Positions 1 to 50,106 of a DNA stretch of 50,106 nt are shown here, piece by piece. The DNA is taken from positions 1 to 50,106 of the IMG/VR virus record IMGVR_UViG_3300005860_000041. One strand, 5' to 3'. The notes beneath the pieces were generated by a model. It saw only the letters and a program-made list of their open reading frames with translations. It was not told where the DNA came from and made no database searches. Source of the stretch: a virus. Its lineage: Duplodnaviria; Caudoviricetes. Position numbers and translations under genes: made by a program. Position 1 is the first letter of the stretch. Each line of letters starts with the position of its first letter.

Positions 1-64
1 TTTCTGGCGCTATTGGCGATAGAAGGTTTTCCCAGTCTCGCTGCATTATAAGCTCGTCCTTCAT
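1..64 (-). CDS. 5' part of a second copy of the 1635..2018 gene (MKDELIMQRDWENLLSPIAPE...), truncated by the window edge
   Basis: 1-136 equals 1955-2090 with 2 mismatches; RBS GGAGGGGAG. Confidence 0.8.
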   Translation of the reverse strand, partial: MKDELIMQRDWENLLSPIAPE

Positions 65-100
65 TTCACTCCCCTCCGTTGGTTTTGGTTTACAGTCCGT

Positions 101-197
101 CATACATAATACACGCTCATAAAAAACGATGCGGCTGAGGCGTGTAACGCGCCGTGAATGCGCCTCAGCCGCATCATTATGTGTCTATGTTATGTGC
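101..197 (-). repeat. Cassette boundary module U0 (motif 101-126, hairpin 128-175, TATGTG tract 176-196)
   Basis: 118-190 identical to 1544-1616; arms GATGCGGCTGAGGCG/CGCCTCAGCCGCATC. Confidence 0.9.
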
Positions 198-211
198 CGG
201 GTTCGTTCTAA

Positions 212-916
212 CTATGAATTGTCAACTTCATCTTCATCATAATCATACGAACATGGACCATCACACTTCCAATGTGATGCTACATCTTCTTCATACAATT
301 GTCCATCTTTGTAGTAAAAGCGAGTTGTCCGCCACCACTCTTGATGCCCCCAACATTGTGCCAACATTACGAATTTCTCCCCTGTCTCTGGATCTTCTAC
401 TAATATGTCATAACTGTGAGGCACGTTGGATGAACCAAACTCAGTGACTTCCCATTCTGCTTCATTAGCGTGGGGAGGTATGATGAGGTAATGAGAATAG
501 ACACTTGTACTTTGAGTGTGTGAAAACCAAGGTGCACGACTGATGAGGTGAGGAACGTTTTCAATTACATAGCAGTTACGGATGGGTTTAACTACGAAGC
601 TGGTTCGCTCACTGTAAGAGTAAAAGTCACTGCTCTGTGTGTTATACTTGAACACCTTGAAGCCCCGTTGAGTTAGCAGTTTTTCTATGTCGAAATTGAA
701 AACCTCGTGATGATGTTTGTAGTTGTCATAAACATACGAGTGTTCAAATGTGAAAGTCTGTCCGGGTAATGTTAACTGCCACGTTTCGCGATATTCATAA
801 AGCTCATGGCAGGGTGTAGAAGTGTGATTGCACTTGCCTGTGTGACAATCACAATCACAGGGAAGCGCGCTTTTAACTGATTTAACGCGTTCAAGTTTTG
901 CCGCCATGCTAACCAT
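212..916 (-). CDS. Hypothetical cassette protein with Cys/His-rich N-terminus and acidic C-terminus (234 aa)
   Basis: ORF track 212..1027; RBS AAGGAGG at 926-932 places the start at 916; CDCDCHTGKCNH motif. Confidence 0.8.
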   Translation of the reverse strand: MVSMAAKLERVKSVKSALPCDCDCHTGKCNHTSTPCHELYEYRETWQLTLPGQTFTFEHSYVYDNYKHHHEVFNFDIEKLLTQRGFKVFKYNTQSSDFYSYSERTSFVVKPIRNCYVIENVPHLISRAPWFSHTQSTSVYSHYLIIPPHANEAEWEVTEFGSSNVPHSYDILVEDPETGEKFVMLAQCWGHQEWWRTTRFYYKDGQLYEEDVASHWKCDGPCSYDYDEDEVDNS

Positions 917-969
917 GCTAACCCACCTCCTTGTGGTTTGTGTGTAGACTAACATACCCGCATCCTGCA

Positions 970-1008
970 GTTTCAATCCCACCAATCCCACAATGGTGCG
1001 ATTGCACC
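970..1008 (-). CRISPR. Solitary CRISPR-repeat-like sequence with an internal 9-bp duplication (not an array)
   Basis: Collapsing the CAATCCCAC duplication gives the 30-mer GGTGCAATCGCACCATTGTGGGATTGAAAC, which has the 3' ATTGAAAC end typical of class 1 repeats. Confidence 0.65.
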
Positions 1009-1087
1009 GGGGCTGGTGAGGGCTCAACCCCCACCAGCCCCGGGAACGACTGGCGTGGGCTCGCTATGTGACGAGTTCCCACGCCAG
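1007..1087 (-). terminator. Two tandem GC-rich hairpins (1007-1043, 1050-1087)
   Basis: CCGGGGCTGGTG/CACCAGCCCCGG and CTGGCGTGGG/CCCACGCCAG. The second is identical to the hairpin at 49843-49887 and carries CTATGTG in its loop. Confidence 0.65.
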
Positions 1088-1096
1088 CCTTTGTCT

Positions 1097-1489
1097 TTAC
1101 TCAACTTCTTGCACAAGCGGAATTTCTTCAACGTGTCCATCACTGTGTATCCTGTATCGCTCTATTTTGTATTCACACATCCGATTGCCCATCCACGCGT
1201 CCACTATCTTTTCGACAACCATTGTGCCTGGGAAGGAGCCAAGTAACGCTCGTATCCTCTTGTTCTCGTAAGGATGAGGAATGTCAAGTTGTTCTACCTT
1301 CACGTCTGTAGGATAAATGATACTATATCTCACACGTCTCTCGACTGTTGCATCTTCCGTTTCCTCTTCTATCAAGCAGACGGCAATGGCTCCGTTCTCC
1401 AACTCCACCAGCGCATTCTGATTTATTAACCTTGCCCGCAGCGCTTTTACAACTTCGTCCCACCCTGGCGCTTTGTAGCGCTTAAACAT
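1097..1489 (-). CDS. Hypothetical cassette protein, paralog of 49906..50106
   Basis: 130-aa ORF, RBS GGAGGTGA, shared C-terminus RYRxHSDxHxEEIPLVQEVE. Confidence 0.85.
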   Translation of the reverse strand: MFKRYKAPGWDEVVKALRARLINQNALVELENGAIAVCLIEEETEDATVERRVRYSIIYPTDVKVEQLDIPHPYENKRIRALLGSFPGTMVVEKIVDAWMGNRMCEYKIERYRIHSDGHVEEIPLVQEVE

Positions 1490-1526
1490 ACTCGCTCACC
1501 TCCGTGGGTTTTGGTTTACAGCTCGT

Positions 1527-1641
1527 CATACACAATACACGCCCATAAAAAACGATGCGGCTGAGGCGTGTAACGCGCCGTGAATGCGCCTCAGCCGCAT
1601 CATTATGTGTCTATGTGTCTATGTTATGTGTCTATTATGTG
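1527..1641 (-). repeat. Cassette boundary module U1 (motif 1527-1552, hairpin 1554-1601, TATGTG tract 1603-1641)
   Basis: Same tripartite layout as U0 and U2-U4. Confidence 0.9.
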
Positions 1642-2018
1642 CTGGGAACTGCAACATAAACTTTTCGTTTTATCCTCAGTTCCATACCAGTTCCGTCCCA
1701 TATCTCTACCGCTACCGCATCTCCTGCTGCCAGCGTTACCTCTGTTTGTATAAACCTACCTCCCGCCGTTCCCGCTTGCCAGCTTCTTACTCCTACCTGT
1801 CGTTCGCGTGGCTTTCCTGCCACAACCCACCACGTTGCCTTATACCATGCAATTGACGAAGACGATGACCCGGCACTAAGCTCCAGCTTCGTCCCTGCGC
1901 GAACAGCGCAGATGACGAAGCCGTCCGCCTCTAATTTTTTCAATTCTTTTACAGTTTCTGGCGCTATTGGCGATAGAAGTTTTTCCCAGTCTCGCTGCAT
2001 TATAAGCTCGTCCTTCAT
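1635..2018 (-). CDS. Hypothetical cassette protein (MKDELIMQRD..., 127 aa)
   Basis: RBS GGAGGTGA before ATG at 2018; the longer ORF-track start runs through the repeat; ends ACA-TAA. Confidence 0.85.
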   Translation of the reverse strand: MKDELIMQRDWEKLLSPIAPETVKELKKLEADGFVICAVRAGTKLELSAGSSSSSIAWYKATWWVVAGKPRERQVGVRSWQAGTAGGRFIQTEVTLAAGDAVAVEIWDGTGMELRIKRKVYVAVPST

Positions 2019-2054
2019 TTCACTCACCTCCGTTGGTTTTGGTTTACAGTCCGT

Positions 2055-2163
2055 CATACATAATACACGCTCATAAAAAACGATGCGGCTCAGCCGCATC
2101 CATGAACGTATTATGCGGCTGAGCCGCATCATTATGTGTCTCTATATGTGTTTATCTCTATGT
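2055..2163 (-). repeat. Cassette boundary module U2 (hairpin 2082-2130 with inverted loop)
   Basis: Motif 2055-2080; loop CCATGAACGTATT is the reverse complement of the U4 loop. Confidence 0.9.
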
Positions 2164-2204
2164 AGAAGGAGCGGTGGCGGTAGCACAATACCACCACCGC
2201 CACC
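2164..2204 (-). ncRNA. Candidate small RNA (gene-less cassette): hairpin followed by CUCCUUCU
   Basis: Lies between modules U3 and U2 with no RBS or credible ORF; stem GGTGGCGGT/ACCGCCACC is extendable by G-U pairs on the transcribed strand. Confidence 0.35.
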
Positions 2205-2296
2205 ATATACACGCCCATAAAACGATGCGGCTGAGGCGCATAACACGTTCATGGATGCGCCTCAGCCGTGCTATGTGTCTATGTGCTATGTTATGT
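2204..2296 (-). repeat. Cassette boundary module U3
   Basis: Motif variant TTTATGGGCGTGTATA, hairpin 2225-2270, TATGTG tract 2271-2296. Confidence 0.9.
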
Positions 2297-2641
2297 TTCT
2301 TCTTTAAGTGCTTCACATTCCTTCCCATCAAAATGCCAATCCACCCACGTCCAATCCCACACCATTGGATTTCCTTCCGCGAGCATCCTACCACATTGTT
2401 TACACCAAATTTCCTCCTTCAACTGCTCTCCATTCAGTAACTCGTAGACGTAGATTAATTCATTGTCATCCAGCAATTGCTCCTCCACCACCACCTCTCC
2501 GCCATTTCGAAGCTCCTTGTATACTTTTTCCCTACACCTATCACAGAGAGTGAGAGTTCTCTCTCCACCCTTTGCTACTATCTTCATACCCCACCGTGCT
2601 TCCTTATTGCACCTATCGCACCTATCGCACACCGCCATCAT
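2291..2641 (-). CDS. Zinc-finger-like cassette protein
   Basis: CDRCDRC, CDRC and CKQC motifs; RBS GGAGGTGA; ends ACA-TAA. Confidence 0.85.
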   Translation of the reverse strand: MMAVCDRCDRCNKEARWGMKIVAKGGERTLTLCDRCREKVYKELRNGGEVVVEEQLLDDNELIYVYELLNGEQLKEEIWCKQCGRMLAEGNPMVWDWTWVDWHFDGKECEALKEET

Positions 2642-2709
2642 ATTTCACCTCCACATGGTTTTGTTTTTGTGGGCATGTTAGCCCACAATCCCACACAGGT
2701 TGGGCTCGT

Positions 2710-2820
2710 CATACACAATACACGCCCATAAAAACTGACACGGTTGAGGCGCATAATACGTTCATGGATGCGCCTCAGCCGTGCTATGTGTCTATGTGCT
2801 ATGTGTCTACGTGCTATGTG
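2710..2820 (-). repeat. Cassette boundary module U4
   Basis: Motif 2710-2734, hairpin 2739-2783, TATGTG tract 2784-2820. Confidence 0.9.
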
Positions 2821-3917
2821 TCCATATACGTTGGCATCACCACATAACGCATTGATGCTACTATAAAGAGTGGCGAATGGTTATTCTCGTAATGAACGGT
2901 AACAACCTCACCGCCAAACAACTTAGCGATGTTGTGCAGGAATTTAGCATTCATGGCAAAAGTATCTTTCTCTATCCCAGAATGCACAACACTAATGTCC
3001 ACTACCGCACGTGAGGCAACTTGTTCATCCTCTGAGCGGTATTCAAGCATCATTTTTGAACCTTGGATGTCAAGTGTCACATAAATTCGTGGCATTCTTT
3101 CTTCTTTTGGGATAGGAAAACTATTCACAACGGCTAAATCGGAGGCATTCAAAGTAAAAACAACGGATGAATTTTCTCGCCTAATCCGGCGCCAGTCAGG
3201 GTAGTTATCTTTTTCGGTTAGCGAGACTATCCGAGTGGCATTGGTTCTCAGTTCGATATTATTATTACTGTATCCTGTAACAACAACGCTACCATCACGG
3301 ATAACTTTAGCCAGTCTTTTAGCTGTTGCATGTGACAAGACTAACGATTTTTTGTCTATTATGTGACCAGTGCCTGATAAACGCTGAACAAGCTGAACAA
3401 GTAGTTGGCGAGTATCCGTAGAAACTACAAATAGACCAAACTCGCATGGTTCTACTAAAATATGATGCAAAACTCCACATGTTTCATCTTCAGCAACACA
3501 CATCAGTGCTTTCGTCAGCGCATCAGCAAACTGCCTTGCATCAAATGTGTATTGCCAAACAACGTCACCTAAAGTAGAGAGAATTGGAAATTCACGAGGA
3601 TTAATTACGCTTAGTGTTGTTGTAATATTGCCAGTCTGGATGTCAATTTTATCGCCATGGAGGTTAAATACCACATCGTCAGTATACTCCAGCGCTTTCA
3701 AATCATTATAGGACACGCAAAAACTTTCCTCTGCATCAGCGACAGCGTCAATTTCAGTAACGAAGTAGTCCCTTATGTCCGTTGCGACAATCTCCAGTTT
3801 ACCTTCGTGTGTAGTAAATTTGACAGTGTATAGTGCAGGTAGTGGCGACTTACGAGGAATGAATTTCCCCGCATTTGACAGTGCTTTTTTGAGTTCACGT
3901 CCATTAACCTTAATCAT
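2814..3917 (-). CDS. dnaN: DNA polymerase III beta sliding clamp homolog (367 aa)
   Basis: Length and motifs: ELKKAL..KSPLPAL, LEIVATD, EFPIL, VSTDTRQL, NYPDWRRI, AMNAKFL, PLFI..YVVMP. Confidence 0.88.
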   Translation of the reverse strand: MIKVNGRELKKALSNAGKFIPRKSPLPALYTVKFTTHEGKLEIVATDIRDYFVTEIDAVADAEESFCVSYNDLKALEYTDDVVFNLHGDKIDIQTGNITTTLSVINPREFPILSTLGDVVWQYTFDARQFADALTKALMCVAEDETCGVLHHILVEPCEFGLFVVSTDTRQLLVQLVQRLSGTGHIIDKKSLVLSHATAKRLAKVIRDGSVVVTGYSNNNIELRTNATRIVSLTEKDNYPDWRRIRRENSSVVFTLNASDLAVVNSFPIPKEERMPRIYVTLDIQGSKMMLEYRSEDEQVASRAVVDISVVHSGIEKDTFAMNAKFLHNIAKLFGGEVVTVHYENNHSPLFIVASMRYVVMPTYMDT

Positions 3918-3953
3918 ATTCACCACCCCTTTTTTTAGTTTAGGATACCGCGC

Positions 3954-4044
3954 CATACTTAATACCCGCCCATAAAGTGTTGGGTGGCATGCGAATGCCT
4001 TTTCGCATGCCACCCAGCGGTGTTTATGTGTCTATGTGTTATGT
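3954..4044 (-). repeat. Cassette boundary module U5
   Basis: Motif TTTATGGGCGGGTATT, hairpin 3979-4018 of unrelated sequence, TATGTG tract. Confidence 0.85.
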
Positions 4045-4278
4045 TGTGTTACTTTCATCTTCCGTTCTTTCGGCAAGTATCCGACACCTCTCATCATCAT
4101 GGTCTACGTTGACGACACGCGTCAGCGTGTCGCCAATATACCACCGCACTCCTCCATACCAGCAAACCCTTTCAAGCTCAATTTCCTCCTCGTCCTCTCG
4201 CTTCGTCCACCACGGGTTTGCTGGACGTGCTTCAAGCCACTCTCCGCAGTGTGGGCATTTCTTTACCCACCATTTCAT
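4039..4278 (-). CDS. Small acidic zinc-ribbon-like cassette protein
   Basis: CPHC motif; RBS AGGAGGTGA; ends ACA-TAA. Confidence 0.85.
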   Translation of the reverse strand: MKWWVKKCPHCGEWLEARPANPWWTKREDEEEIELERVCWYGGVRWYIGDTLTRVVNVDHDDERCRILAERTEDESNTT

Positions 4279-4303
4279 GATACTTCACCTCCTTATAAAT
4301 GAT

Positions 4304-4362
4304 GCACGGTTGGGAGCGCACAATGAACTTCTGTGCGCTCTCAACCGTGTGCTATGTTATGT
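4304..4362 (-). repeat. Cassette boundary module U6 (hairpin plus TATGT tract, no promoter-like motif)
   Basis: GCACGGTTGGGAGCGCACA/TGTGCGCTCTCAACCGTGT; arm start CACGGTTG shared with U4. Confidence 0.8.
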
Positions 4363-4438
4363 TTCTTCTTTAAGTGCTTCACATTCCTTCCCATCAAATG
4401 GTTTTGTTTTTGTGGGCATGTTAGCCCACAATCCCACA
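4351..4438 (-). pseudogene. Internally deleted copy of the 2291..2641 cassette (3' end fused to its 5' leader)
   Basis: 4351-4398 matches about 2285-2332 and 4398-4438 matches about 2655-2695; junction at an ATG microhomology. Confidence 0.85.
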
Positions 4439-4459
4439 ATCCCACAATGGTGCGATTGC
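4437..4459 (-). CRISPR. Second, 3'-truncated CRISPR-repeat-like sequence
   Basis: CAATCCCACAATGGTGCGATTGC is identical to 983-1005 and adjoins hairpin 4463-4504. Confidence 0.55.
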
Positions 4460-4513
4460 GAAGGATGGCGCGAGCGCGACACAAAAGATGCGCTCGCGCC
4501 ATCCGTATGTGTT

Positions 4514-4930
4514 CTATTGGTCAATTTGTTCAAGATAAATGTAAAGCTCTCTTAGCGGATGAGTGTCAGACACATACTCTACCACCACGTCTGCGATTGC
4601 CATTATTTTCTCTTGTAACTGTCGCAGTTTACTAACAAGCTCCTGCCTGACATCCCACAATGCCCCGCAAGCAACAAACATTAAGACCGGATCCCTATCG
4701 AATTTGTCTTGTGCTTCGCCTAAAGCATTATAAACAATTGTTTCAGAATGTGAAAGTAAGTCTAACAAGCTCAGTATCTTGTCGCCCAACTCATCCCAGC
4801 TATCGTTGACCCAATCAAACTTGATACCAGCGAAAGCGGTCGTAAGCGTCTGCGGTCCCATAGCCATATATGTCCATCTGGCTCCCTTAATGATGGGATA
4901 CAGCAGTTCGCATCGTTCCTCTTTTGTCAT
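4514..4930 (-). CDS. Hypothetical helical cassette protein
   Basis: ORF track 4514..4939; RBS GGAGGTGA before ATG at 4930. Confidence 0.8.
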   Translation of the reverse strand: MTKEERCELLYPIIKGARWTYMAMGPQTLTTAFAGIKFDWVNDSWDELGDKILSLLDLLSHSETIVYNALGEAQDKFDRDPVLMFVACGALWDVRQELVSKLRQLQEKIMAIADVVVEYVSDTHPLRELYIYLEQIDQ

Positions 4931-4988
4931 TTTATTCACCTCCGTTTTTGTGCGGGCTTGTTATCCCGCACCTTACTTCAGTTGCCGT

Positions 4989-5081
4989 CATATGTAATAC
5001 TCGCTCATAAAACTTAAAGGGCGACACACAGTTGCAGGGTGTGTCGCCCTTTAAAGGTCGTATGCTATCTATGTGTCTATG
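4989..5081 (-). repeat. Cassette boundary module U8
   Basis: Motif TTTATGAGCGAGTATT, 16-bp perfect stem 5014-5054, TATGTG tract. Confidence 0.85.
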
Positions 5082-5278
5082 CGCTTACCTTGGACAAACA
5101 GGAACTCTATGTATGGTGGAACGCCCAAGTAGGCGTCCCAGTCACCAGTCCAGTGTTCGCATTTTTCCACTTCCTCTGCAGTTATACCATCATCGTCAAT
5201 GATGATGGTATACTGCATTCCGCAGAATGGGCAAATCACCTTCCCGTTGTTATTCACCTTAACCCATACTTCTTGCAT
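5069..5278 (-). CDS. Small acidic zinc-ribbon-like protein
   Basis: CPFC...CEH; RBS GGGGGTGA; ends ACA-TAG. Confidence 0.8.
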   Translation of the reverse strand: MQEVWVKVNNNGKVICPFCGMQYTIIIDDDGITAEEVEKCEHWTGDWDAYLGVPPYIEFLFVQGKRIDT

Positions 5279-5296
5279 CTTCATCACCCCCTGTTT

Positions 5297-5575
5297 TTAC
5301 ACGGAGTTTAAAAGGAACACGACTTGTTTGAATGCCTCTTGCAGTGTGTCATATGACATGAAGAAGCAATCTTCAGGACACACTACTTCATACCACCGTC
5401 TACGCTTCTTGCCGTAATACATCTCGTTGCGCACAAGGAAGACAATTTTGGCGGTGTCGGGGTTGATAATACGAAAATACAAGTTCAAGTTTTTGGGTGT
5501 GACAGTCACGATAAATCCGTGTTTTCTGCACAGTCTTTCCACTGTTTTTTGTGTCTTACTTCTCTCTTTGCTCAT
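5297..5575 (-). CDS. Small basic hypothetical protein
   Basis: RBS AAGGGGTGA before MSKERSK; coupled to the upstream gene. Confidence 0.75.
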   Translation of the reverse strand: MSKERSKTQKTVERLCRKHGFIVTVTPKNLNLYFRIINPDTAKIVFLVRNEMYYGKKRRRWYEVVCPEDCFFMSYDTLQEAFKQVVFLLNSV

Positions 5576-5789
5576 CCTCATCACCCCTTTGGAAGGAACA
5601 CTGTCCATTCCACAGACACACAGTGCATGCCTGTTCTTCGCACTTGAGCCCGCACACCATCTGTGAGCCCTTCCCGTTATCTCGTAAGATGAAGTTGCAC
5701 CATAGTGGTATAGCAACCTCAGCATCCACCAATCTACCGCACACGCAACATTTTACGATGTGTCTTGCGATGCTTTCTACCACTTTCAT
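5556..5789 (-). CDS. Cys-rich zinc-binding hypothetical protein
   Basis: CCVC, CGLKC and CTVC motifs; RBS GGGGTGA. Confidence 0.75.
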   Translation of the reverse strand: MKVVESIARHIVKCCVCGRLVDAEVAIPLWCNFILRDNGKGSQMVCGLKCEEQACTVCLWNGQCSFQRGDEDEQREK

Positions 5790-5979
5790 TCTTCATCACC
5801 CCCTTAAAGAATGTGACTTTAAATGGAATAAACAGCCAACCTGCCACCTTTTTGAGTTCTCTCTCAGCAACAACTATATGGTCACCACATAGATAAAACA
5901 CATCATCGCCATACCGTATCTTTCCCACCGCTCTTTTCTTACATTTGCTATACATGCATCGGCGCATTCCTTTTATCAT
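5734..5979 (-). CDS. Small basic zinc-finger-like protein
   Basis: CMYSKC...CGDH; RBS GGGGGGTGA. Confidence 0.7.
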   Translation of the reverse strand: MIKGMRRCMYSKCKKRAVGKIRYGDDVFYLCGDHIVVAERELKKVAGWLFIPFKVTFFKGVMKNESGRKHRKTHRKMLRVR

Positions 5980-6002
5980 TCACCCCCCTTTTGAGTTTTA
6001 CA

Positions 6003-6026
6003 GGGGACGGCTTTAAAGCCGTCCCC
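6003..6026. promoter_or_regulatory. 24-bp perfect palindrome (terminator or operator)
   Basis: GGGGACGGCTTTAAAGCCGTCCCC, downstream of the ATPase gene. Confidence 0.6.
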
Positions 6027-6071
6027 CTGTGCGGGTAGCGAGACAGGTTGAGACGGCGGAGAGGATGGCTC

Positions 6072-7115
6072 TTATGTGCCATTAGGCGATGCTTTCTTCT
6101 TTAGCTCCTCTAAGAATGGGCGGAGCTTCTGTTTATAGAACTCTTGTGCCTTCCAAGGCTTATTTGATGCCACAATCTCCGCCCATTCCCTTCCGAGGCG
6201 CTCCAGCTCTTGGCGCTCCGGATCTGATACTTCTGGTGAGCTATAAATTTTTGTCATCAGCTTTACGACTGCTGCGATTGCTTCATTCTTCTTCGCAACA
6301 TCAGCGAGCTTTCTTTGTAGGAACTGCGGGAATGGTTCTTCTTCAACTGGTGCGTCAAGCACTCCTTCAATCAGTGCAACTGCGTCAGTGCTTGTTACCA
6401 CCGTTGGTGCTTCGTCAACTTCAACTGGGAGTTCTTGTGGTCTCTCTGTTGTTGCTAAGTTTAGCCGTTTTAGCAGTTCTTCTGCTTCTGCCGGGAACAC
6501 TGTGTTGTGTAGTGTTGGGATGCGTGCTCCAACATTGCCTGCTGCGGGCGAGAATGAGACTTGGTAAACTAACCTACCTTCCACAACCTGCACACTAATG
6601 TTACCTATCGCATCGCACTCTGCCAGAACAGCTCGCCCAGTCTTACCCGGCAGGTCCACAGTTGATGCACCAGCTTCCAATCCTGGCTTTACATGGATGA
6701 GGAACACAACGAGCTGGAAGCACTTTCGTAGTGCCCTAATCCAGTCGACGATACTGATACGTGCCAGCGCGAAGCCCTTGCCATACGCCGCCTTCTCAAT
6801 GTCTGTTCCAATTTGTGCTTCGACATAGTTTGACAGCAAATCGTAGGCGGCGTCAAGGGTGTCGATGACAATGCACGGATACTTACCACCAAACTCACTC
6901 GGTATCGCTAACAATTCCTCCCAAGTCTCAGGCTGAATGCCATCGACGTGGAAGGGAAGGAAGTCCGTCCCCTTTTCAATGTCCACAACCAGCCCACCAA
7001 GGGCGCGGGCAACTTTTGCACCAAATGTCGTCTTCCCGCCCTTTGGTGGTCCATAGACGGCGATGGTCGCATGCTTGATTGGCTGTTTCCCGAGCTTCTT
7101 CACTTGCAGGCTCAT
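6072..7115 (-). CDS. Sak4-like/AAA_24 P-loop ATPase (phage recombination protein)
   Basis: Walker A YGPPKGGKTT, DIEKGT, Walker B IVIDTLD, FLIH, DAIG; ends ACA-TAA. Confidence 0.8.
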   Translation of the reverse strand: MSLQVKKLGKQPIKHATIAVYGPPKGGKTTFGAKVARALGGLVVDIEKGTDFLPFHVDGIQPETWEELLAIPSEFGGKYPCIVIDTLDAAYDLLSNYVEAQIGTDIEKAAYGKGFALARISIVDWIRALRKCFQLVVFLIHVKPGLEAGASTVDLPGKTGRAVLAECDAIGNISVQVVEGRLVYQVSFSPAAGNVGARIPTLHNTVFPAEAEELLKRLNLATTERPQELPVEVDEAPTVVTSTDAVALIEGVLDAPVEEEPFPQFLQRKLADVAKKNEAIAAVVKLMTKIYSSPEVSDPERQELERLGREWAEIVASNKPWKAQEFYKQKLRPFLEELKKKASPNGT

Positions 7116-7157
7116 ACACATCACCCCTCCTTGTGATGTAGGTTTGGGCGTTCACCC

Positions 7158-7181
7158 TATATATAATACCTGCTCATAAAA
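7158..7181 (-). promoter_or_regulatory. TTTATR-N5-GTATT promoter-like motif
   Basis: TTTTATGAGCAGGTATTATA upstream of the ATPase RBS. Confidence 0.7.
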
Positions 7182-7195
7182 GATTGGGCACCCGG

Positions 7196-7504
7196 TCACT
7201 CTGTGACTATGACATAGTATGAGCCAGTGTCCTCGTCATAGATTGGCTCTTTTGGTTGCGGTGCAGATGTAACGAGAGTGACAGTCCACTCAATTTCCCA
7301 TACACCGCACTTAGAGCAGTAGTTCTGTGTCTTTTGCACTTGCACGGCAATGATGACTGGCTTGTGCTTTTTCACATACAGTGCAACTTCGTTTAGCAAT
7401 ACCGAAAAAGCTTCATCTTGGTCTTCAACGAACGGCTTGCTCTTAATGCTGAATGTCTTGGTGATGCTAAGTGCCGCACCACGCGTTATCTTATGCGTCT
7501 TCAT
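7196..7504 (-). CDS. Hypothetical protein
   Basis: RBS GGGAGGGTGA before MKTHKI; CSKC motif. Confidence 0.7.
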   Translation of the reverse strand: MKTHKITRGAALSITKTFSIKSKPFVEDQDEAFSVLLNEVALYVKKHKPVIIAVQVQKTQNYCSKCGVWEIEWTVTLVTSAPQPKEPIYDEDTGSYYVIVTE

Positions 7505-7739
7505 TCCCATCACCCTCCCTATTAGGTATCCCAAGGAAATGAATGATGTTTTTAATCGCTTCCTCAAGCCTTGATGTTAATTTACCTTCACAATCTTTAT
7601 AGGCGAAATACAAATCCAATGCCAAAGCTTCCCATTCCATCACCTCTTCTTCGAGTGTTGCGTTTGCACTTGCGAGCGCTTCGAGGTGTTCTTCAAGCTC
7701 TTCAAGGCGCTTTTTAAGTGTGTGCTTCTTTTGCGTCAT
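7491..7739 (-). CDS. Coiled-coil hypothetical protein
   Basis: Heptad pattern LEELEEHLEAL; ATGA overlap with the upstream gene. Confidence 0.75.
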   Translation of the reverse strand: MTQKKHTLKKRLEELEEHLEALASANATLEEEVMEWEALALDLYFAYKDCEGKLTSRLEEAIKNIIHFLGIPNREGDGNEDA

Positions 7740-8821
7740 AGAGCATCACCCTCCTGTTGTAGTTTTTCCAGCCAGCACCGAGCTTCGATTTTACGAAGCT
7801 CAGTGAAGCACTGGTTGCACACTTTTTTGCCCATGTAAGCAATGCATTCTCGGTATGCCATTGGCGGGTTAGGTAGGGCATACCGAGAAAGCTCAAAGAC
7901 GCGACATATTTCAACGACACCACAGCGAGTGCATTGTTCCTTCCTTTGTGGCTCTGTCTTTTCCTCTAAGAGCTGTATCTTCTCACGCACCCTCTTAATT
8001 GTCTCCTTCAATGCCTCTTTGTCAGTCTTAGCCCTCTTTACCTTCTCCGTCCTAATTGCTTTTAGAGATGGCATGTTTTTAATTGCAAGTTTCGCACATG
8101 TTTTCATGACAGTTGTGGGTGTATTACGACAATTAGGTGACACTACATCAAGTGCTTGCTTGATGAAGTAGAAAATCTCTTCAGCATAGAAGCCCTTCTT
8201 TCGTAGCATTCTCCATATACCCCAGCAAATGGAAAATTCTTTGTGTGTCAGCTTTTTCCCTGCAATTTCTACCAACTCCCTGTAAAGAAGCCTCCTCTCG
8301 TCTAAAAGAATAAGACCTTCTTTGCGCGTGCTGTTCGCACGCACTCTGTTAGAGTTAGAACCTTCTTTATCATCTACAGAACTACTTCTATGGAACGGAT
8401 TAAACTTCTTACACAAAATATGTAGTGTCAGGGGGTGAACCCTGAAAAACTTGATGAGCTTTAGAAGGTCTGAGTAGGTCAAGGTCTGTCCTGACACAAG
8501 TGCCTCCGCTACTGCTTCTCCTAATTGGCTCAAAGTAACACCAATGGTGTTAGTCGCTCCATCATAAACATATTGCACCGTCAAATAGGCAAGCCTTGCC
8601 CTGTATCGTGGATTGCGCCCAAGAAGACGACGCACTGTCTCCATATGCAACCCAGTGCGCCTCGCTATCTCCCTAATTGATAAAGGAACACGCAAGTAAC
8701 CACCACCACATTCATATGTGCTTTCCCATAAAACCTTCAGTATCTTGACAACTCGCCCGTCTTTGAGATACCACTCAAGACGACGTGCACACCATTTTGG
8801 AAAATTAATCCACTTGCTCAC
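7736..8821 (-). CDS. HTH protein, putative replication initiator with C-terminal zinc finger
   Basis: LSIREIARRTGLHMETVRRLL HTH, polar central linker, CTRC/CNQC; next to recombination genes. Confidence 0.6.
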   Translation of the reverse strand: MSKWINFPKWCARRLEWYLKDGRVVKILKVLWESTYECGGGYLRVPLSIREIARRTGLHMETVRRLLGRNPRYRARLAYLTVQYVYDGATNTIGVTLSQLGEAVAEALVSGQTLTYSDLLKLIKFFRVHPLTLHILCKKFNPFHRSSSVDDKEGSNSNRVRANSTRKEGLILLDERRLLYRELVEIAGKKLTHKEFSICWGIWRMLRKKGFYAEEIFYFIKQALDVVSPNCRNTPTTVMKTCAKLAIKNMPSLKAIRTEKVKRAKTDKEALKETIKRVREKIQLLEEKTEPQRKEQCTRCGVVEICRVFELSRYALPNPPMAYRECIAYMGKKVCNQCFTELRKIEARCWLEKLQQEGDAL

Positions 8822-9089
8822 TTAACATCACACTCCTTTTACCGTGTTTGTCAAGATAGAATACCATCTTTCTCACACATCTTGGCGACACTACTTGTGA
8901 TAGCTCACGAGCCTTTCGCTTCTTGTCTTTCTTAGTGCAACATTGTATCAGAACAACTTCACTTTCATTAATGGCAACAATGTCAACGGGTGTATGGCTT
9001 CCTGAAGAACGAATAACAAAGTAGCCCTCCCTTTCAAGCAACTCCTTCACTCTATACTCCAGCCTTCGTCCCTTTTGATACCTTGTCAT
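8805..9089 (-). CDS. Hjc-type PD-(D/E)XK Holliday junction resolvase-like protein
   Basis: YQKGRRLE..V..LL...GYFVIRSSGS..PVDIVA......LIQC. Confidence 0.8.
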   Translation of the reverse strand: MTRYQKGRRLEYRVKELLEREGYFVIRSSGSHTPVDIVAINESEVVLIQCCTKKDKKRKARELSQVVSPRCVRKMVFYLDKHGKRSVMLSEQVD

Positions 9090-9507
9090 CGTCCTCACTC
9101 CCCTCATCTATAAGCTTCGTAAGGAAATCTAAACCCCATATGAGCGATGTTGTCCACATTGTTGAAAAACGGAGTATGTTCGTAACTTCATCTTGTGAAG
9201 TGTAAGGCGACAGTCGTTCTTTTGTGACCTTGCCAGCAAGCCTTGTTGCGGCGCATAAAATGTCGTTTATTGATATCAGCTCTATGGGCAGTTGCTTTTC
9301 TTTGGTTGTCTCTTCGATGCTTCGTGCAAGCCAAAACGCTATGTTGTAAATGGCAGCACTTAGCACAAGTATTAAATCGTCAGGGTCACTTAAGTCAAAC
9401 GGAAGCTCTGTGTTTTCGTCAGTCTTTTCCAATACCTTGTTGAGTAAGAACCCGACACGCATGATAATATCACGCGCCTTGGTCGTCTTTCTCTCGTTGT
9501 TGTTCAT
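9052..9507 (-). CDS. Hypothetical protein
   Basis: 151-aa ORF, RBS GAGGTGA, overlaps neighbours. Confidence 0.75.
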   Translation of the reverse strand: MNNNERKTTKARDIIMRVGFLLNKVLEKTDENTELPFDLSDPDDLILVLSAAIYNIAFWLARSIEETTKEKQLPIELISINDILCAATRLAGKVTKERLSPYTSQDEVTNILRFSTMWTTSLIWGLDFLTKLIDEGSEDDDKVSKGTKAGV

Positions 9508-9949
9508 CTTGCATCACCTCTCTTAGTATGTGTTCAATAACTTCTTTATCAAGTAAGCCAATAATTACTTTGGCAAGGTTCTTGGCTTGCTTGTTAGCTT
9601 CCACTTCTTCTTTTGCATTGCAAATGAAATTATACAGTGCTTGCATAACTAACAGCCTCATAGACACTGGTAACCTCTCAAGTGAATAGTAGCGTTGTTG
9701 CCCGTAAGTTGTATGGTAAACATACATGCTTAAGAACACATTTTTGTTCACACCACATAGGCAAAAGTCAATGTGAAGTTCAATATCGGGTGTGACTTGA
9801 ATTGTTATTTGGTAAGTGTCTTTGAGGCGCTTTTCAATTGAAGCGAGGATGCGCTCTTTTATCTCACTGATGCTCTTTACCCATTCATAATCATAGTCTG
9901 GGTAAAGCTTCTTCAGCATTGCATCGTAAACACTCTCAGGTGCGTTCAT
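9470..9949 (-). CDS. Hypothetical protein
   Basis: RBS GGGGGGTGA before MNAPES. Confidence 0.75.
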   Translation of the reverse strand: MNAPESVYDAMLKKLYPDYDYEWVKSISEIKERILASIEKRLKDTYQITIQVTPDIELHIDFCLCGVNKNVFLSMYVYHTTYGQQRYYSLERLPVSMRLLVMQALYNFICNAKEEVEANKQAKNLAKVIIGLLDKEVIEHILREVMQDEQQREKDDQGA

Positions 9950-9965
9950 GATTTCATCACCCCCC

Positions 9966-9990
9966 ATTATTAATACACTCTCATAAAAAA
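9966..9990 (-). promoter_or_regulatory. TTTATR-N5-GTATT promoter-like motif heading the replication/recombination operon
   Basis: TTTTTTATGAGAGTGTATTAATAAT. Confidence 0.7.
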
Positions 9991-10006
9991 TTGGTCGGCA
10001 AGCTGG

Positions 10007-10810
10007 TTAGCTTGCTACATCAATATCAAACTTGAATGTGGTGGCATGCCTTTCTGACACACCAAACAACCACCACTTATTTGACGATAATAAGCCAAGC
10101 GTCATCATCGGATATAAATCGTCCGTCACAAGCGTCCCGTTCAAAAATATGTCTATGCCATTTAACCGCGTGTATCCACAACTGTGAAAATGACCAAAAC
10201 ATGCCACACGCCAATCATCCCTTACACTTTGTGCCCACTTCAGCACTTTTGTGATTATCCCATACCAAGGAACTTGTGCATACATCCTAATATAATGCCC
10301 GTGATAAAGTAATAACCCATGCCCCTTTACCTTATGCACCATCAAAAAATCATCACGCTCATTTATCACAAACCTTGTCTTGGGCAACATAGCCTTCATG
10401 AGCTTGTATGTTGCAATGTCCCAGTTGGCTGCCTCATGTGCCCTTTTGCCAGCACGCCCGTGATTACCTGCTACACCAACAAAGGTAACATTCCTAAAAT
10501 GCCCATGGGCACGCTTTATCTGCGTGGCAATGATGTCAGCTGCAACTTCCGCTTGCAGAAGAACATTCGTGATGGCTTGATGATGTGGTTGCGTGGCGTA
10601 AATCTCTGTGCCATCATTAATATCTCCAAGCGACGCCACCACTAACTCATCAAAGATATAACCACTGCCAAGCAACTCCTTGATGCGCAATATTTTGTCC
10701 ATCCACCGCTCCATCATCTTGCGCGCTCTCTCAATGTTGAACGACAGCGTGAGTTTACCGATGTGCATGTCGCTGATTAATGCAACGAGTGTCTCTTTTG
10801 ACTTCTTCAC
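10007..10810 (-). CDS. Calcineurin-like metallophosphoesterase
   Basis: SDMHIG, GDINDG, GNHG, HGH and GHFH motifs. Confidence 0.9.
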   Translation of the reverse strand: MKKSKETLVALISDMHIGKLTLSFNIERARKMMERWMDKILRIKELLGSGYIFDELVVASLGDINDGTEIYATQPHHQAITNVLLQAEVAADIIATQIKRAHGHFRNVTFVGVAGNHGRAGKRAHEAANWDIATYKLMKAMLPKTRFVINERDDFLMVHKVKGHGLLLYHGHYIRMYAQVPWYGIITKVLKWAQSVRDDWRVACFGHFHSCGYTRLNGIDIFLNGTLVTDDLYPMMTLGLLSSNKWWLFGVSERHATTFKFDIDVAS

Positions 10811-11298
10811 TTGATGCCCTCCTCTCTACACACAACCTTAGCAAACATTTTCCAAAAACGTAAGTAGGGAAAATCAACGGGGTCTTGCTTGCCTGCAATG
10901 CTAATGTCTTTGTGTGCGGTGATTGTGGAAATCGGCGTTGGATTGTTCTTCATGATTTGCCATATGAGCCACGCAAGCGCTTCCAATTGTTTGTCTGGAT
11001 AATCACGCGCACCTTCGTAACTCTCAATCTCAATGCCAATTGAAATGTTGTTCACTTGATTGCATACACCAAGCCTGCTCTTACCCGCATGCCACGCCTT
11101 TCTTGTCGTGGGAACGAGCTTGTAAATTGTCCCATCTCGTGCAACTAAATAATGAGCACTAACTTTACTCTCGGGGTTCGTCAACCACGATAATGCGGAT
11201 TTTGCATTGCCTTCTGTAGTGTGAAGAACTATCACATTCGTAACACTACCAAGTAACCTTTCACTTTGATTTGGTGATGGCTTTTCAATCACTTTCAT
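10807..11298 (-). CDS. N-acetylmuramoyl-L-alanine amidase (Amidase_2) endolysin
   Basis: PSPN, VLHTT, SAHYLV, AWHAG, SIGIE, AHKD..KQDP. Confidence 0.92.
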   Translation of the reverse strand: MKVIEKPSPNQSERLLGSVTNVIVLHTTEGNAKSALSWLTNPESKVSAHYLVARDGTIYKLVPTTRKAWHAGKSRLGVCNQVNNISIGIEIESYEGARDYPDKQLEALAWLIWQIMKNNPTPISTITAHKDISIAGKQDPVDFPYLRFWKMFAKVVCREEGIK

Positions 11299-12742
11299 CA
11301 CTCTCACCCTCTTCATCTCCAAATGTTAACCTGTCCACTTTTATTATGCCACGTGATGTTCGCATTTGTCTAACCCCTTTCAAGTCTTTCTTTGTAGCCT
11401 CTTCGGGCTCCGGTTCTTCACTATACCCTGGTGCTGTAATTATACCACGCGATGCAAGGTTCGGTATGACTTTCTCTGCGCGCTCTGTTGCATCTTCTGC
11501 TCTGTAGTAAATATCACTATCACATTTTATCTTCTGTGCAACCTCAAGTGCTTTATCTCTTGCTTCAGCTATTGTTTCACCAAACGATGCCACTTCGCAA
11601 ATGATTGCATCTGTGCCTGCACAACGAAGCTCACCATTCTTGATGTAAACATCCATCGGAAAGATTTCTACATCCTCAGGTGTGTCTGGAAATTCAACAT
11701 ACACATCTTTGGCAAACACTTCATAGAGCTTCTCAACCTCTTGTGAAACCGCTTCACTACCCTCAAGTGGATACGGCGGTATGGACACTCTAATTGCAAA
11801 CCCATAACCCTTCCTTAAGTTCATCACAACTTCTTCTCCAGCTGCAGCTTTGTAAAGCACCTCACCAAATTCTTGTGTGCGCCCCATCAACATGAGTAAA
11901 CAAAAGATTGCATTGTAACCAAACCTACTACCACACCATTCAAGGAAGAACGGATTGCCACCCCTGTGGCTCACTATTGTGTTTGCATCCCACGCACCAC
12001 TTTCATTCGCAGCTGCAAGCATCGGCGCAATCTTCTTATGCGTCTCTTGAACAAGTAGGTCGTCTGGTCCTGCAGCAAACACAATTGAAGTTTGACAACC
12101 TGTGTTCGGTCCTAAATCACCAGGTGCAAACTTCTTCGTCTCAACTGTGTAGTTGATTGAACCAGGTATTGGCTTGCCATTTGAATACCACACTTCCGTG
12201 CTTATTTCGTGCCCCGGAACAAAGTCTTGCACAATGAATGACTTAGCATCAACCAAGTAACCCGCCTCTTGTTGCCTCATAAGCCATCGTGCTGCAGCCT
12301 CTGGATTTTGTGCCACATATGATGACGCACACGCAACCCTACCTGAAAGCTTAATGACAACCTTCCTGTTATGCTTGATGATGTAATCTACTGCCTCGTT
12401 CACATCTTTAAATACACGCGTGTATGGAACACGAATGCCCGACGCTAATGCCATCGCTAACCCAAAATGCCTATCCTCTTCCGCTCTATCACCAAGCGCT
12501 GTGCCGTTGAAAACCTTCTTCCCAGACTTACGAAGGTCTTCCATCACCTTGGATAAACCAGTCTCATCACTAAAATACACATCAAAGTCGTCAGGCACCT
12601 TGTCAAACTTCGGCACTAAACCATCATACAAATGCTTGCACGACCTTGACATTATGACAGCTGCAATTTGATGCCCCTCGTCCCTTAAGCGCAAAAGTAA
12701 TGGTAATCCTGGACCACTCTTTGTGATGAGACAAAACTTCAT
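11285..12742 (-). CDS. Divergent PurD (phosphoribosylamine-glycine ligase)-like ATP-grasp protein
   Basis: VVIKLSG, IVQDFVPGHEIS, GDLGPNTG, LEW..SRFG and a GARS-C-like tail (GETIAEARDKA..DIYYR); no GxGGREH motif. Confidence 0.8.
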   Translation of the reverse strand: MKFCLITKSGPGLPLLLRLRDEGHQIAAVIMSRSCKHLYDGLVPKFDKVPDDFDVYFSDETGLSKVMEDLRKSGKKVFNGTALGDRAEEDRHFGLAMALASGIRVPYTRVFKDVNEAVDYIIKHNRKVVIKLSGRVACASSYVAQNPEAAARWLMRQQEAGYLVDAKSFIVQDFVPGHEISTEVWYSNGKPIPGSINYTVETKKFAPGDLGPNTGCQTSIVFAAGPDDLLVQETHKKIAPMLAAANESGAWDANTIVSHRGGNPFFLEWCGSRFGYNAIFCLLMLMGRTQEFGEVLYKAAAGEEVVMNLRKGYGFAIRVSIPPYPLEGSEAVSQEVEKLYEVFAKDVYVEFPDTPEDVEIFPMDVYIKNGELRCAGTDAIICEVASFGETIAEARDKALEVAQKIKCDSDIYYRAEDATERAEKVIPNLASRGIITAPGYSEEPEPEEATKKDLKGVRQMRTSRGIIKVDRLTFGDEEGESDESD

Positions 12743-26538: not shown

Positions 26539-26556
26539 GCTCAACCCTCCTCTCTA

Positions 26557-48823: not shown

Positions 48824-48866
48824 TAAAAAAAAGAAGCGCAGGCACTTTTGTAGTGCCTGCGCTTTT
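48824..48866. terminator. Bidirectional intrinsic terminator
   Basis: A-run, 13-bp stem AAGCGCAGGCACT/AGTGCCTGCGCTT, T-run. Confidence 0.75.
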
Positions 48867-49094: not shown

Positions 49095-49234
49095 CTTGCA
49101 CACCTCCTCTTGAGTTTTGGAGCTCTACTTGAGTTTGGACGCTTCAGCAATTTGAGCTTGCCACATTGTGCGGCAAGCCCAATGATAATTAGCCTACGCA
49201 ACTCCTTCTCCGCCTTTTCAAGCTTCGTTTTCAT
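49082..49234 (-). CDS. Small basic protein (50 aa)
   Basis: RBS GGAGGTGG before MKTKLEK. Confidence 0.6.
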   Translation of the reverse strand: MKTKLEKAEKELRRLIIIGLAAQCGKLKLLKRPNSSRAPKLKRRCARWKE

Positions 49235-49247
49235 TATGCACCACCTC

Positions 49248-49350
49248 CATACTAATACGCACATATAAAAAAAGCGAGGACGCAAGAGCGAGCGCTCTAA
49301 CTCTCTCGCGTTCTTTTCTTTGCGAGCTCTATATGCGTCCTCGCTCTCTT
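49248..49350 (-). repeat. Cassette boundary module (motif TTTATATGTGCGTATT, hairpin AGCGAGGACGCA/TGCGTCCTCGCT, TATGTG)
   Basis: Same layout as left-end modules; arms shared with 49751-49776. Confidence 0.75.
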
Positions 49351-49374
49351 TTTTTATGTGCACTTTATCTCTCG

Positions 49375-49686: not shown

Positions 49687-49723
49687 ATGCACCACCTCCA
49701 TATTTGTTTTTTGCGCCACATTC

Positions 49724-49810
49724 AATACATGCGCATAAAAACGAAGACGCCGAGGACGCAAATCCATGCGTCCTCGCATGTGCTATGTGACTGTGCTATG
49801 TGACTATGTG
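49724..49810 (-). repeat. Cassette boundary module (motif TTTATGCGCATGTATT, hairpin 49751-49776, TATGTG tract)
   Basis: Same layout as left-end modules. Confidence 0.8.
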
Positions 49811-49835
49811 CGCTCAAATGGCTTCATGCAACATT

Positions 49836-49891
49836 AAAAAAAGACTGGCGTGGGCTCGCTATGTGACGAGTTCCCACGCCAGCCTTTTTTT
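49836..49891. terminator. Bidirectional terminator identical in stem-loop to 1048-1092
   Basis: A7, stem-loop, T7. Confidence 0.75.
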
Positions 49892-49905
49892 GTCTTTACT
49901 CAACT

Positions 49906-50106
49906 TCACTCAACTTCCTGGACAAGCGGAATTTCTTCGATGTGTGTGTCGGAATGAACCCTGTATCGCTTTACTGTATACCAACGCATCCGGTCGTCCA
50001 CCCACTCTTCCTCCTCTTTTTCGACAACTAAGTGGGAAGTAAGAGGAAACAGTAGCGCACTTATCTTCTTCCCGGCATAAGAAGGAATATCAATCTTTTC
50101 AGGATG
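49906..50106 (-). CDS. 3' part of a paralog of 1097..1489, truncated by the window edge
   Basis: Hand translation ...VVEKEEEEWVDDRMRWYTVKRYRVHSDTHIEEIPLVQEVE*; not in the ORF track. Confidence 0.85.
   Translation of the reverse strand, partial: HPEKIDIPSYAGKKISALLFPLTSHLVVEKEEEEWVDDRMRWYTVKRYRVHSDTHIEEIPLVQEVE

Follow-up and report, generated by a model that had tools for sequence, protein, structure and literature searches.

In T4-type phages, a stop codon, a stem-loop terminator, a promoter, a Shine-Dalgarno (SD) sequence and a start codon form one repeated intergenic cassette, the promoter-early-stem-loop (PeSL) element; PeSLs sit in hyperplastic regions, where recombination between cassettes moves ORFans (Arbiol et al., 2010; Comeau et al., 2014; PMC2839356, PMC4122927, in the parts of these reports on which we draw). 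Here we analyze an array of small genes at the two ends of IMGVR_UViG_3300005860_000041, a Caudoviricetes virus record of 50,106 nucleotides, the whole of which is the window referred to below. The array is probably a hyperplastic series of mostly independent small-gene expression units, separated by composite cassettes that recombine in the manner of PeSLs. It is not a novel class of mobile-gene system, the closest known system being the PeSL cassette of T4-type phages, together with the morons of lambdoid phages. This view rests on what can be read from the sequence: the anatomy of the junctions, their strand bias and statistics, chimeric modules, the ghost of a gene, and divergence from a sister phage.

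The lambdoid morons, in the work of Juhala and Hendrix, are reportedly single extra genes with their own promoter and terminator, lying between other genes. Each unit here is likewise a single gene with its own promoter-like box and terminator, but about ten stand in tandem with near-identical flanks, whereas morons are said usually to be scattered, with unrelated flanks. PeSLs are reportedly also mentioned in work on a cyanophage and on haloarchaeal tailed viruses. As in PeSLs, to the extent that those reports describe them (PMC2839356, PMC4122927), the cassette is a stop-to-start composite in a hyperplastic region among genes without known homologues, and its repeated copies recombine into chimeric cassettes, insertions and deletions. 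In contrast to the T4-type cassettes, those described here belong to an unrelated lineage (a hot-spring phage with an SU10-type portal and a probable Armatimonadota host), have a promoter box that is not of sigma-70 consensus, always place the hairpin ahead of the box with a T tract common to both, and add an (ACATAR)n stop tract and copies of a clustered regularly interspaced short palindromic repeat (CRISPR). The likeness is one of sequence; mini-circles, and promoter and terminator activity, are described for PeSLs.

The window is an entire virus record, classed as linear and estimated to be 96% complete. It encodes a large terminase, an SU10-type portal, a major head protein, tail proteins, a holin and an Amidase_2 lysin, and is therefore the genome of a tailed phage whose bacterial host bears peptidoglycan. 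Nearly all genes, including every gene of positions 1–6100, lie on the minus strand, and the modules therefore have to be read as the reverse complement. On that strand the array makes up the last 7–8 kb, from 5967 down to 1 and then from 50106 down to 48880, such that the contig begins and terminates within it (gI′ at one end, gJ′ at the other; Table 1). The first-pass annotation placed a Sak4-like ATPase and an Hjc-like nuclease beside the array, and both genes are indeed found there; together with an exonuclease encoded in the record they are ordinary general-recombination functions. Its description of the array genes as “early/anti-host” was an assumption: only gG is assigned a function by Pfam and PHROGs, the other nine of the ten array genes searched have no PHROGs family, and neither gK nor gE has a hit of at least 0.9 in the protein atlas. 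The array genes may nevertheless be early. Positions 1–6300 had no blastn match in the phage database, and the whole window had no Rfam match at the gathering score and no tRNAs.

Read along the transcribed strand, a junction comprises the upstream stop codon, (ACATAR)n, a GC-rich hairpin, a T run fused to the core TTTTATGRGCGNGTATT, a leader, an SD resembling GGAGGTGA, and the start codon. The recurring tripartite module that the first-pass annotation proposed is thus real and complete at eight of its listed sites (101, 1527, 2055, 2710, 3954, 4989, 49248 and 49724), while three others need correction. At 2204 the core is shortened (GTATA, not GTATT) with neither an SD nor a gene behind it, making an “empty” unit; at 4304 a hairpin and an SD occur with no core; and at 4463, taken to be a partial module, a hairpin that lacks a T run stands instead before a CRISPR-repeat copy. 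The pattern TTTAT-N6-GTATT occurs 10 times in the 50106 bases, with every copy intergenic and on the minus strand; shuffles predict 0.11 occurrences (0 of 100 reach 10), and the aligned core consensus is TTTTATG.GCGtGTATTa..TATG. Eight of the ten cores directly precede array genes. The other two (7165–7180 and 9972–9987), which lie outside the span considered in the first-pass annotation, precede non-array genes with the start codon 40–60 bases on, or nearer, and have neither hairpin nor ACATAR tract; the core is therefore separable and behaves like a promoter-type signal used beyond the array. A promoter function for the core is suggested by these placements, and either the T tract plus TATGRG, or TATTRT inside the core, could be its −10 element. 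A reading of the core as a mini-open reading frame (ATG ... TGA, 4–6 codons) was rejected, since it lacks an SD and its variation is not concentrated at third codon positions.

The hairpins have stems of 14–18 near-perfect pairs, and after 10 of the 16 array hairpins at least four T (4–8) lie within 6 bases on the transcribed strand. These ten have the anatomy of intrinsic (Rho-independent) terminators, i.e. a GC-rich stem with an immediate U tract, and would be expected to terminate transcription. Whole-junction folds range from −27 to −123 kcal/mol, and the 4304 hairpin folded alone gives −30.5 kcal/mol (z −6.1); a terminator scan that allows loops of up to 8 detects some but not all of these hairpins. 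The first-pass statement that hairpin sequences differ while their position is kept applies to only some of the modules, because six hairpins (101, 1527, 2055, 2204, 2710 and 4304) are homologous and those of 49248 and 49724 have GCGAGGACGCAT in common. Some leaders on the minus strand (4951–4975, 2655–2690) share a small 5′ untranslated region (5′UTR) hairpin followed by AAAAAC (GTGCGGG..CCCGCAC, GTGGGC..GCCCAC), and others have CTGTAAACCAAAACC in common; leader families do not track hairpin families.

The ACATAR motif is not enriched over the genome as a whole (42 on the minus strand versus 34.7 ± 5.5 expected), but 34 of the 42 lie within 1–5112 or 49359–49864. Five of the seven genes preceding a tract (gD, gF, gG, gH and gI) close with ACA-TAA or ACA-TAG, the first tract unit serving as their stop codon, and the last three residues of gD are encoded by the tract. 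Among long minus-strand frames only 4 of 49 end in ACA-TAR, all in the array region. The 7–8-base period shifts successive TAR triplets between frames, so that, whatever its frame, an open reading frame (ORF) that runs into the tract meets a stop no more than a few codons on, as ...Thr-stop. The tract would thus provide a frame-independent stop buffer just ahead of the terminator. An (AN)n Hfq-type tract was considered and rejected, as the 7-base units break phase.

In the mechanism that we propose, each 60–150-base cassette would combine four parts: an (ACAYATAR)n tract of 7–8-base period that presents TAG/TAA in changing frames and in most cases provides the stop of the gene upstream, an intrinsic terminator with a 14–18-bp GC stem and a U tract, a promoter-like core fused to the T tract, and a leader with a strong SD. 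Because the same cassette is repeated in direct orientation, about ten times, general homologous recombination could exchange the intervening genes. Together with occasional illegitimate events, it would exchange, duplicate and delete genes between cassettes, and for this the phage encodes possible enzymes of its own, namely a Sak4-like annealase, an exonuclease and an Hjc-like resolvase.

Evidence for such exchange comes from similarities within the window: 1–196 and 1955–2150 are 90% identical, 2282–2332 and 4348–4398 are 100% identical, and 2652–2695 and 4395–4438 are 98% identical. The hairpin half of module 101 is identical to module 1527 at 69/73 positions (56/74 to module 2055), and its promoter/leader half to module 2055 at 59/60 (52/60 to module 1527), with the crossover within the common CATCGTTTTTTATG stretch. 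Module 2204 is identical to module 2710 at 48/49 positions in the 5′ arm and loop and resembles 1527 at its end. The interval from gE to gF contains a ghost of gH, in which the leader (4395–4438) is joined to the last 51 bases (4348–4398) and the coding body is lost; it is a duplication followed by an illegitimate deletion within the gene. In addition, the contig L001 carries before gE a 19-base SD/start block identical to the block before gI in the window. The two chimeras (101 and 2204) and the L001 block are what cassette recombination giving chimeras, insertions and deletions leaves behind, although the events are few. The duplicated, deleted and empty units reported in the first-pass annotation are all present (the 1–196 copy, the gH ghost and 2139–2203), and its picture of a hypervariable, PeSL-like array, made up mostly of single-gene units that have boundary signals in common, is supported. 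As far as their sequences go, the chimeric modules, the ghost, the empty unit and the difference from the sister array fit recombination between modules, and this recombination would be homologous.

One DNA run (X1, assembled contigs only) matches the stretch and was examined at 90% likeness. The alternative cassette orders for which the first-pass annotation had looked to reads did not emerge: the X1 contigs gave no clean variant junction and no circles. In four of its five joints the sides are 22–23 bases long and one of the ends coincides with a CRISPR-repeat copy (1005/1006 or 4461). As cassette rearrangements these four were rejected, and they are read as CRISPR-array contigs of another organism or as alignments from repeat copy to repeat copy. 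The fifth (4678 to 4752) is a small skip within gE. A backward join from 2046 to 1507 (depth 6.1) would place a 1527-type box before gI and is ambiguous, being in the shared GGTTTTGGTTTACAG repeat. Contig depth over gK (7.6–9.5) is below that of most other bins and was not used, since depth cannot rank genes.

The sole diverged relative found is L002 (= L004), a 52-kb IMG/VR contig with 84–91% DNA identity over matched blocks of conserved genes. Its modules are ordered alike (CATAG repeats, hairpin, T run, a box ending TTATGAG, SD) with hairpins and boxes that differ in sequence, and two of its five genes before a tract likewise end in ACA-TAR, after reading through part of the tract. In L002 the box lies 30–50 bases beyond the terminator, such that terminator and box are separate components; in the window the terminator T tract and the box appear to have fused. 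Read by eye, three of four L002 boxes have TTGGRT-N17-TATGAG, which suggests that T-tract-TATGRG is a −10-like part common to both phages. The 8.4-kb L002 array has relatives only of gA, gC, gD and gI, at 27–71% identity, among the eleven array genes with a valid query (four further queries, from the right end, were out of frame), and gI, a single-gene unit in the window, lies inside a four-gene operon in L002. An extra gene with a DPPY motif, absent from the window, is located just upstream of Sak4 in L002 (9130–9930, plus strand); from its sequence it is probably a DNA methyltransferase. Two further fragments, L001 and L003, reproduce the modules at 99.4–99.8% identity over 4497–11353. The module could not be followed more widely through viromes, as the first-pass annotation had envisaged: the strict core pattern recovered only L001 from IMG/VR. 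Searches with Sak4 against IMG/VR and metagenome contigs returned only the two near-identical fragments and L002, those with gG and gK gave no further relatives, and an alignment search with gI gave only the L002 contig. Among the matches listed for ACATAG ×3 in IMG/VR (at least 120 stretches), only L155, a part of the L002 contig, was related by tblastn.

Two junctions contain copies of a CRISPR repeat, with two exact 18-mers of the repeat on the minus strand versus 0.06 expected. The first solitary repeat unit (SRU1; 1006–967, between gJ and gK) reads GCAATCGCACCATTGTGGGATTG (23 bases) followed by a 9-base reiteration and AAAC; the second (SRU2; 4462–4420) reiterates the 3′ arm TGGGATTG and lacks the AAAC end. 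The best match of both is the repeat variant GTCGCAATCGCACCATTGTGGGATTGAAAC (SRU2 25/25 and SRU1 23/23 bases) of G001, a metagenome-assembled genome (MAG) titled Candidatus Thermosaccharophagus yellowstonensis, phylum Armatimonadota. Each is a single intergenic copy that closely matches a CRISPR repeat and is accompanied by neither cas genes nor an array, as is characteristic of solitary repeat units. A repeat-like hairpin is possible in each copy, and the minimum-energy fold of SRU1 pairs the 5′ arm with the reiterated 3′ arm. Both follow a hairpin without a T run and so are probably co-transcribed with gJ or gE. No repeat copy was found in L002.

G001 has arrays with this repeat and a Cas6 (86 bits), and its second array includes a spacer matching gE at 32/35 bases; no cas genes were found beside the three fetched arrays, and no Csm1 hit in G001. 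The core of the repeat is shared by hot-spring MAGs from several phyla (75 stretches), and in 77 repeat-core loci (L005–L081) no spacers matched the phage. In X1, loose contig ends that abut phage-matching pieces read AATCGCACCATAGTGGGATTGAAAC at 1468, 2328, 5267 and 7006, and a second repeat-like sequence flanks 4551–4585; by their sequence these appear to be CRISPR arrays in that sample that carry spacers against this region. Copies of the repeat also occur outside arrays elsewhere. On the minus strand of L081, a 63-kb IMG/VR virus contig, two units about 180 bases apart (10800–11040) each consist of a terminator hairpin, a T run and a copy of the same repeat without the AAAC end. Many single copies are scattered in large contigs of one Fervidibacterota MAG (loci L005, L014, L017, L021, L022, L024, L028, L031, L037, L050, L056, L060, L066, L071, L073 and L074) and in loci of an Armatimonadota bin (L011, L015, L034, L069, L075 and L077), in several cases with a brief repetition of the 3′ end (GGGATTGAAAS) behind them that closely resembles the reiteration of the phage copies.

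Many viral solitary repeat units act as RNA anti-CRISPRs (Racrs; Camara-Wilpert et al., 2023; PMC10651486). The two phage copies resemble these, as far as that report was drawn on, in being intergenic, cas-less and single and in keeping the repeat hairpin, and in that the candidate host has arrays with the repeat as well as Cas6 and the phage is targeted by such arrays (PMC10651486). Unlike Racrs, they have 8–9-base reiterations of the 3′ arm and follow a hairpin rather than a predicted promoter. They are candidate RNA anti-CRISPRs, which at these two junctions would most likely act as RNA decoys or Cas6 substrates.

Integron cassettes are promoterless, are read from a common Pc and use attC sites with IntI. 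The integron analogy of the first-pass annotation would have the hairpins fold as single-stranded DNA, like attC, with a phage or host enzyme excising and inserting the cassettes. The array does share with integrons its co-oriented, mostly single-gene units between imperfect palindromes of conserved position, a content that varies between relatives, and the occurrence of duplicated, empty and ghost units. Yet site-specific shuffling of this kind is most improbable here. No tyrosine recombinase (PF00589) matched the 96%-complete record at E ≤ 1, with the control positive in 14 of 14 genomes, nor did a serine recombinase (PF00239); a RYYYAAC...GTTRRRY pair 45–150 bases apart is present in 0 of 11 junctions on either strand; and the units have their own promoter-like core. 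The near-perfect stems lack the bulged bases of attC, and only on the transcribed strand does a T run follow them, features typical of RNA terminators rather than of folded recombination sites; the crossovers fall in the shared CATCGTTTTTTATG and in the loop or 3′ arm, as in homologous exchange. Another explanation, that strains joined across repeats by the assembler gave rise to the duplications, the ghost and the chimeric module, is rather unlikely. It draws on the contig starting in gI′ and ending in gJ′, on the L001 and L003 assemblies stopping inside junction modules (at 4497 and 4960, respectively), and on variant letters in gK and gJ in the X1 contigs, but would account for the end copy at most: the modules recur in L001 and L003, contigs of the independent run cover all 30 bins of 1–7200, gI′ and gI differ at 1 of 64 bases and their leaders at 1 of 60, gJ′ is a diverged paralogue of gJ rather than a copy, and the ghost, the empty unit and module 2204 are far from the contig ends.

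HutP and TRAP bind spaced UAG or GAG triplets, and the (C)AUAG repeats 5′ of each terminator might similarly bind an oligomeric RNA-binding protein, making the hairpins regulated attenuators. This would add to the array of expression units rather than replace it; we regard it as unlikely, as we do its corollary that the array would switch between separate units and read-through. In the window and most L002 modules, UAG/UAA units at 7–8 bases stop 0–12 bases short of the stem (about 25 in one L002 module), the tract is kept in both phages while hairpins and boxes differ, and clusters of at least three CATAR (1–6-base spacing) number four in the window and two in L002, the only others in about 480 kb of bacterial loci being two hits that overlap CRISPR repeats in one locus. 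However, the units are unevenly spaced (at 7, 8 and 10 bases), the ACATAT/ACATAA units of one L002 tract contain no UAG, there is no candidate protein (the HutP family was not matched in the phage, TRAP was not searched for, and nine of ten array genes have no PHROGs family), and a frame-independent stop function accounts for the tract without one. The N4 virion polymerase reads hairpin promoters, and the hairpin plus a 16–25-base core could in principle be read by a phage RNA polymerase, possibly hidden in a 4601-residue protein encoded in the structural block. The length and high conservation of the core, its dissimilarity to sigma-70 promoters, its absence from five candidate host genomes, and the lack of a family match for that protein would suit this idea, which is nonetheless very unlikely: no single-subunit RNA polymerase or sigma factor was matched (one search’s control matched nowhere, making that blank weak), no hairpin accompanies the cores at 7165 and 9972, promoter hairpins are short whereas those here are long and have U tracts, and TTGGRT-N17-TATGAG in L002 looks like a host-type promoter. 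It is also conceivable, if doubtful, that the cassette serves as a socket, in which a frame-independent stop, a terminator, a promoter and a strong SD would let any inserted DNA be expressed at once and insulated from its neighbors; sockets would then trade cargo as small circles through Sak4, the exonuclease and Hjc, and CRISPR-repeat decoys would make the region a fast-evolving counter-defence locus of a phage whose Armatimonadota host is uncultured.

Several observations weigh against a PeSL-like array of expression units. The cores depart from a simple sigma-70 consensus, with 0 of 10 among the 20 + 10 sites listed by a sigma-70 scan, and the 16-base core has no match in five candidate host genomes (13.2 Mb); RNA polymerase and sigma families were not found in the phage, a blank that is weak for one search, whose control matched nowhere. 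Two of the 16 hairpins are followed by only three T and four by no T run. No RNA sequencing run containing the stretch was found, and the function of the ACATAR tract is only a predicted one. The gI′ copy at the contig end could be a strain variant joined by the assembler. Few independent events, from one diverged relative and two near-identical fragments, underlie the placing of breakpoints in modules. The first-pass claims of shuffling at module boundaries, and of gene gain and loss at modules in related contigs, accordingly stand only in part: the chimeras, the ghost and the near-total change of content in L002 fit them, whereas the ghost deletion lies inside the gene, at a CAT(T) microhomology, and L002 has extra genes in the gA–gD operon without any module.

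Table 1. Genes, junctions and related features of the array (gene names and coordinates are our own calls; genes are listed in transcription order)
Feature	Position	Strand	Description
Sak4	7124-6072	-	Gene call
gA-gD	5967-5069	-	Tight operon
gD>gE, module 4989	4931..5068	-	gD stop within ACATAG
Module 4989, parts	Hairpin arms 5014-5029 + 5039-5054; T run plus core 4996-5011	-	5′UTR hairpin, SD GGAGGTGA
gE	4930-4514	-	Gene call
GC hairpin after gE	4463..4504	-	No T run; directly upstream of CRISPR-repeat copy 2
CRISPR-repeat copy 2 (SRU2)	4420..4462	-	See text
gH ghost	4348..4438	-	gH leader fused to end of gH region
Partial module 4304	4279..4352	-	ACATAACATAG, hairpin with 18-bp arms, weak T tract, SD GGAGGTGA of gF, no core
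gF	4278-4039	-	Gene call
gF>gG, module 3954	3918..4038	-	ACATAR ×3 (first = gF stop), hairpin ~3978-4019, core 3961-3976, SD GGGGTGGTGA
gG	3917-2814	-	DnaN-type sliding clamp (Pfam, PHROGs)
gG>gH, module 2710	2642..2813	-	ACATAG ×4 (first = gG stop), hairpin, T5, core 2717-2732
Module 2710, leader	Within 2642..2813	-	GTGGGATTG fragment plus 5′UTR hairpin
gH	2641-2291	-	Gene call
Module 2204 after gH	2204..2290	-	ACATAR ×4, chimeric hairpin, T4, truncated core
Empty unit	2139..2203	-	13-bp hairpin (2168-2200 region), CT-rich tail, ACATA-like units; no ORF with SD
Module 2055 before gI	2019..2138	-	Hairpin 2082-2133, T6, core 2062-2077, SD
gI	2018-1635	-	Gene call
gI>gJ, module 1527	1490..1634	-	ACATAR ×5 (first = gI stop), hairpin 1551-1604, T6, core 1534-1549, SD
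gJ	1489-1097	-	Gene call
Two GC hairpins after gJ	1045-1090 and 1007-1043 (1007..1096)	-	Both without T run, no core
CRISPR-repeat copy 1 (SRU1)	967..1006	-	Upstream of gK, transcribed strand
gK	916-212	-	Gene call
gK>gI′, module 101	65..211	-	Chimera of 1527-type and 2055-type halves
gI′	1-64	-	Second copy of gI 5′ end, 63/64 identical; cut at contig end
gJ′	50106-49906	-	Cut at contig end; diverged paralogue of gJ
gJ′>gL	49691..49907	-	Terminator hairpin with A7/T7 flanks, CACATAG ×3, second hairpin, core 49724-49739, SD
gL, gM, gN	Between gJ′ and terminator 48864-48834	-	Right-end array genes
gL>gM, module 49248	49233..49374	-	Long hairpin, T7, core 49254-49269, SD
Last array terminator	48834..48864	-	13-bp stem, T8, then ATG; iteron-like repeats next
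Core before Sak4-like gene	7165..7180	-	41 bases ahead of gene; no hairpin or ACATAR
Core before next gene	9972..9987	-	Directly before SD; no hairpin

Because no core is present at 1007..1096, gK is without a promoter-like box of its own. The empty unit runs from the truncated core to the next terminator and includes a CT-rich stretch, CCGCTCCTTCT, whose sequence is the complement of an SD; the unit might represent a small RNA some 100 bases long. Degenerate tandem repeats (48357–48736, units like GCACAGGATGGGCG) between the last array terminator and the plus-strand genes look like iterons or an origin, and the protein encoded beside them (47590–48180, plus strand) has a Peptidase_S26-type match (E 1.4e-9). 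Within the structural block, a single open frame of 4601 codons (12739–26544, minus strand) takes up 27% of the genome; the protein has no sequence relative in Pfam, PHROGs or the PDB, and at least short stretches of the frame are common to L002. Two structural genes have internal tandem duplications (28648–29514 and 33141–33524, at 73% and 82% identity, respectively).

Cassettes with a dual role, in the expression and in the shuffling of genes without known function, have been described for T4-type phages, in the parts of the reports on which we draw (PMC2839356, PMC4122927); the same cassettes under other names were not searched for. New here are the PeSL logic in an unrelated hot-spring phage, the stop-codon repeat, the box merged with the terminator, and the CRISPR-repeat copies. 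The recurrence of the same logic in an unrelated phage suggests a convergent, general route to a plug-and-play accessory region, and the stop tract offers a testable idea for how foreign ORFs become expressible on arrival. Through the repeat copies and the spacer match the phage is linked to a candidate Armatimonadota host, and in this lineage, which has no cultured hosts, the copies are nominated as candidate RNA anti-CRISPRs and the neighboring genes as possible protein ones. The array is of interest both for phage genome evolution and for the discovery of anti-CRISPRs in an uncultured lineage.

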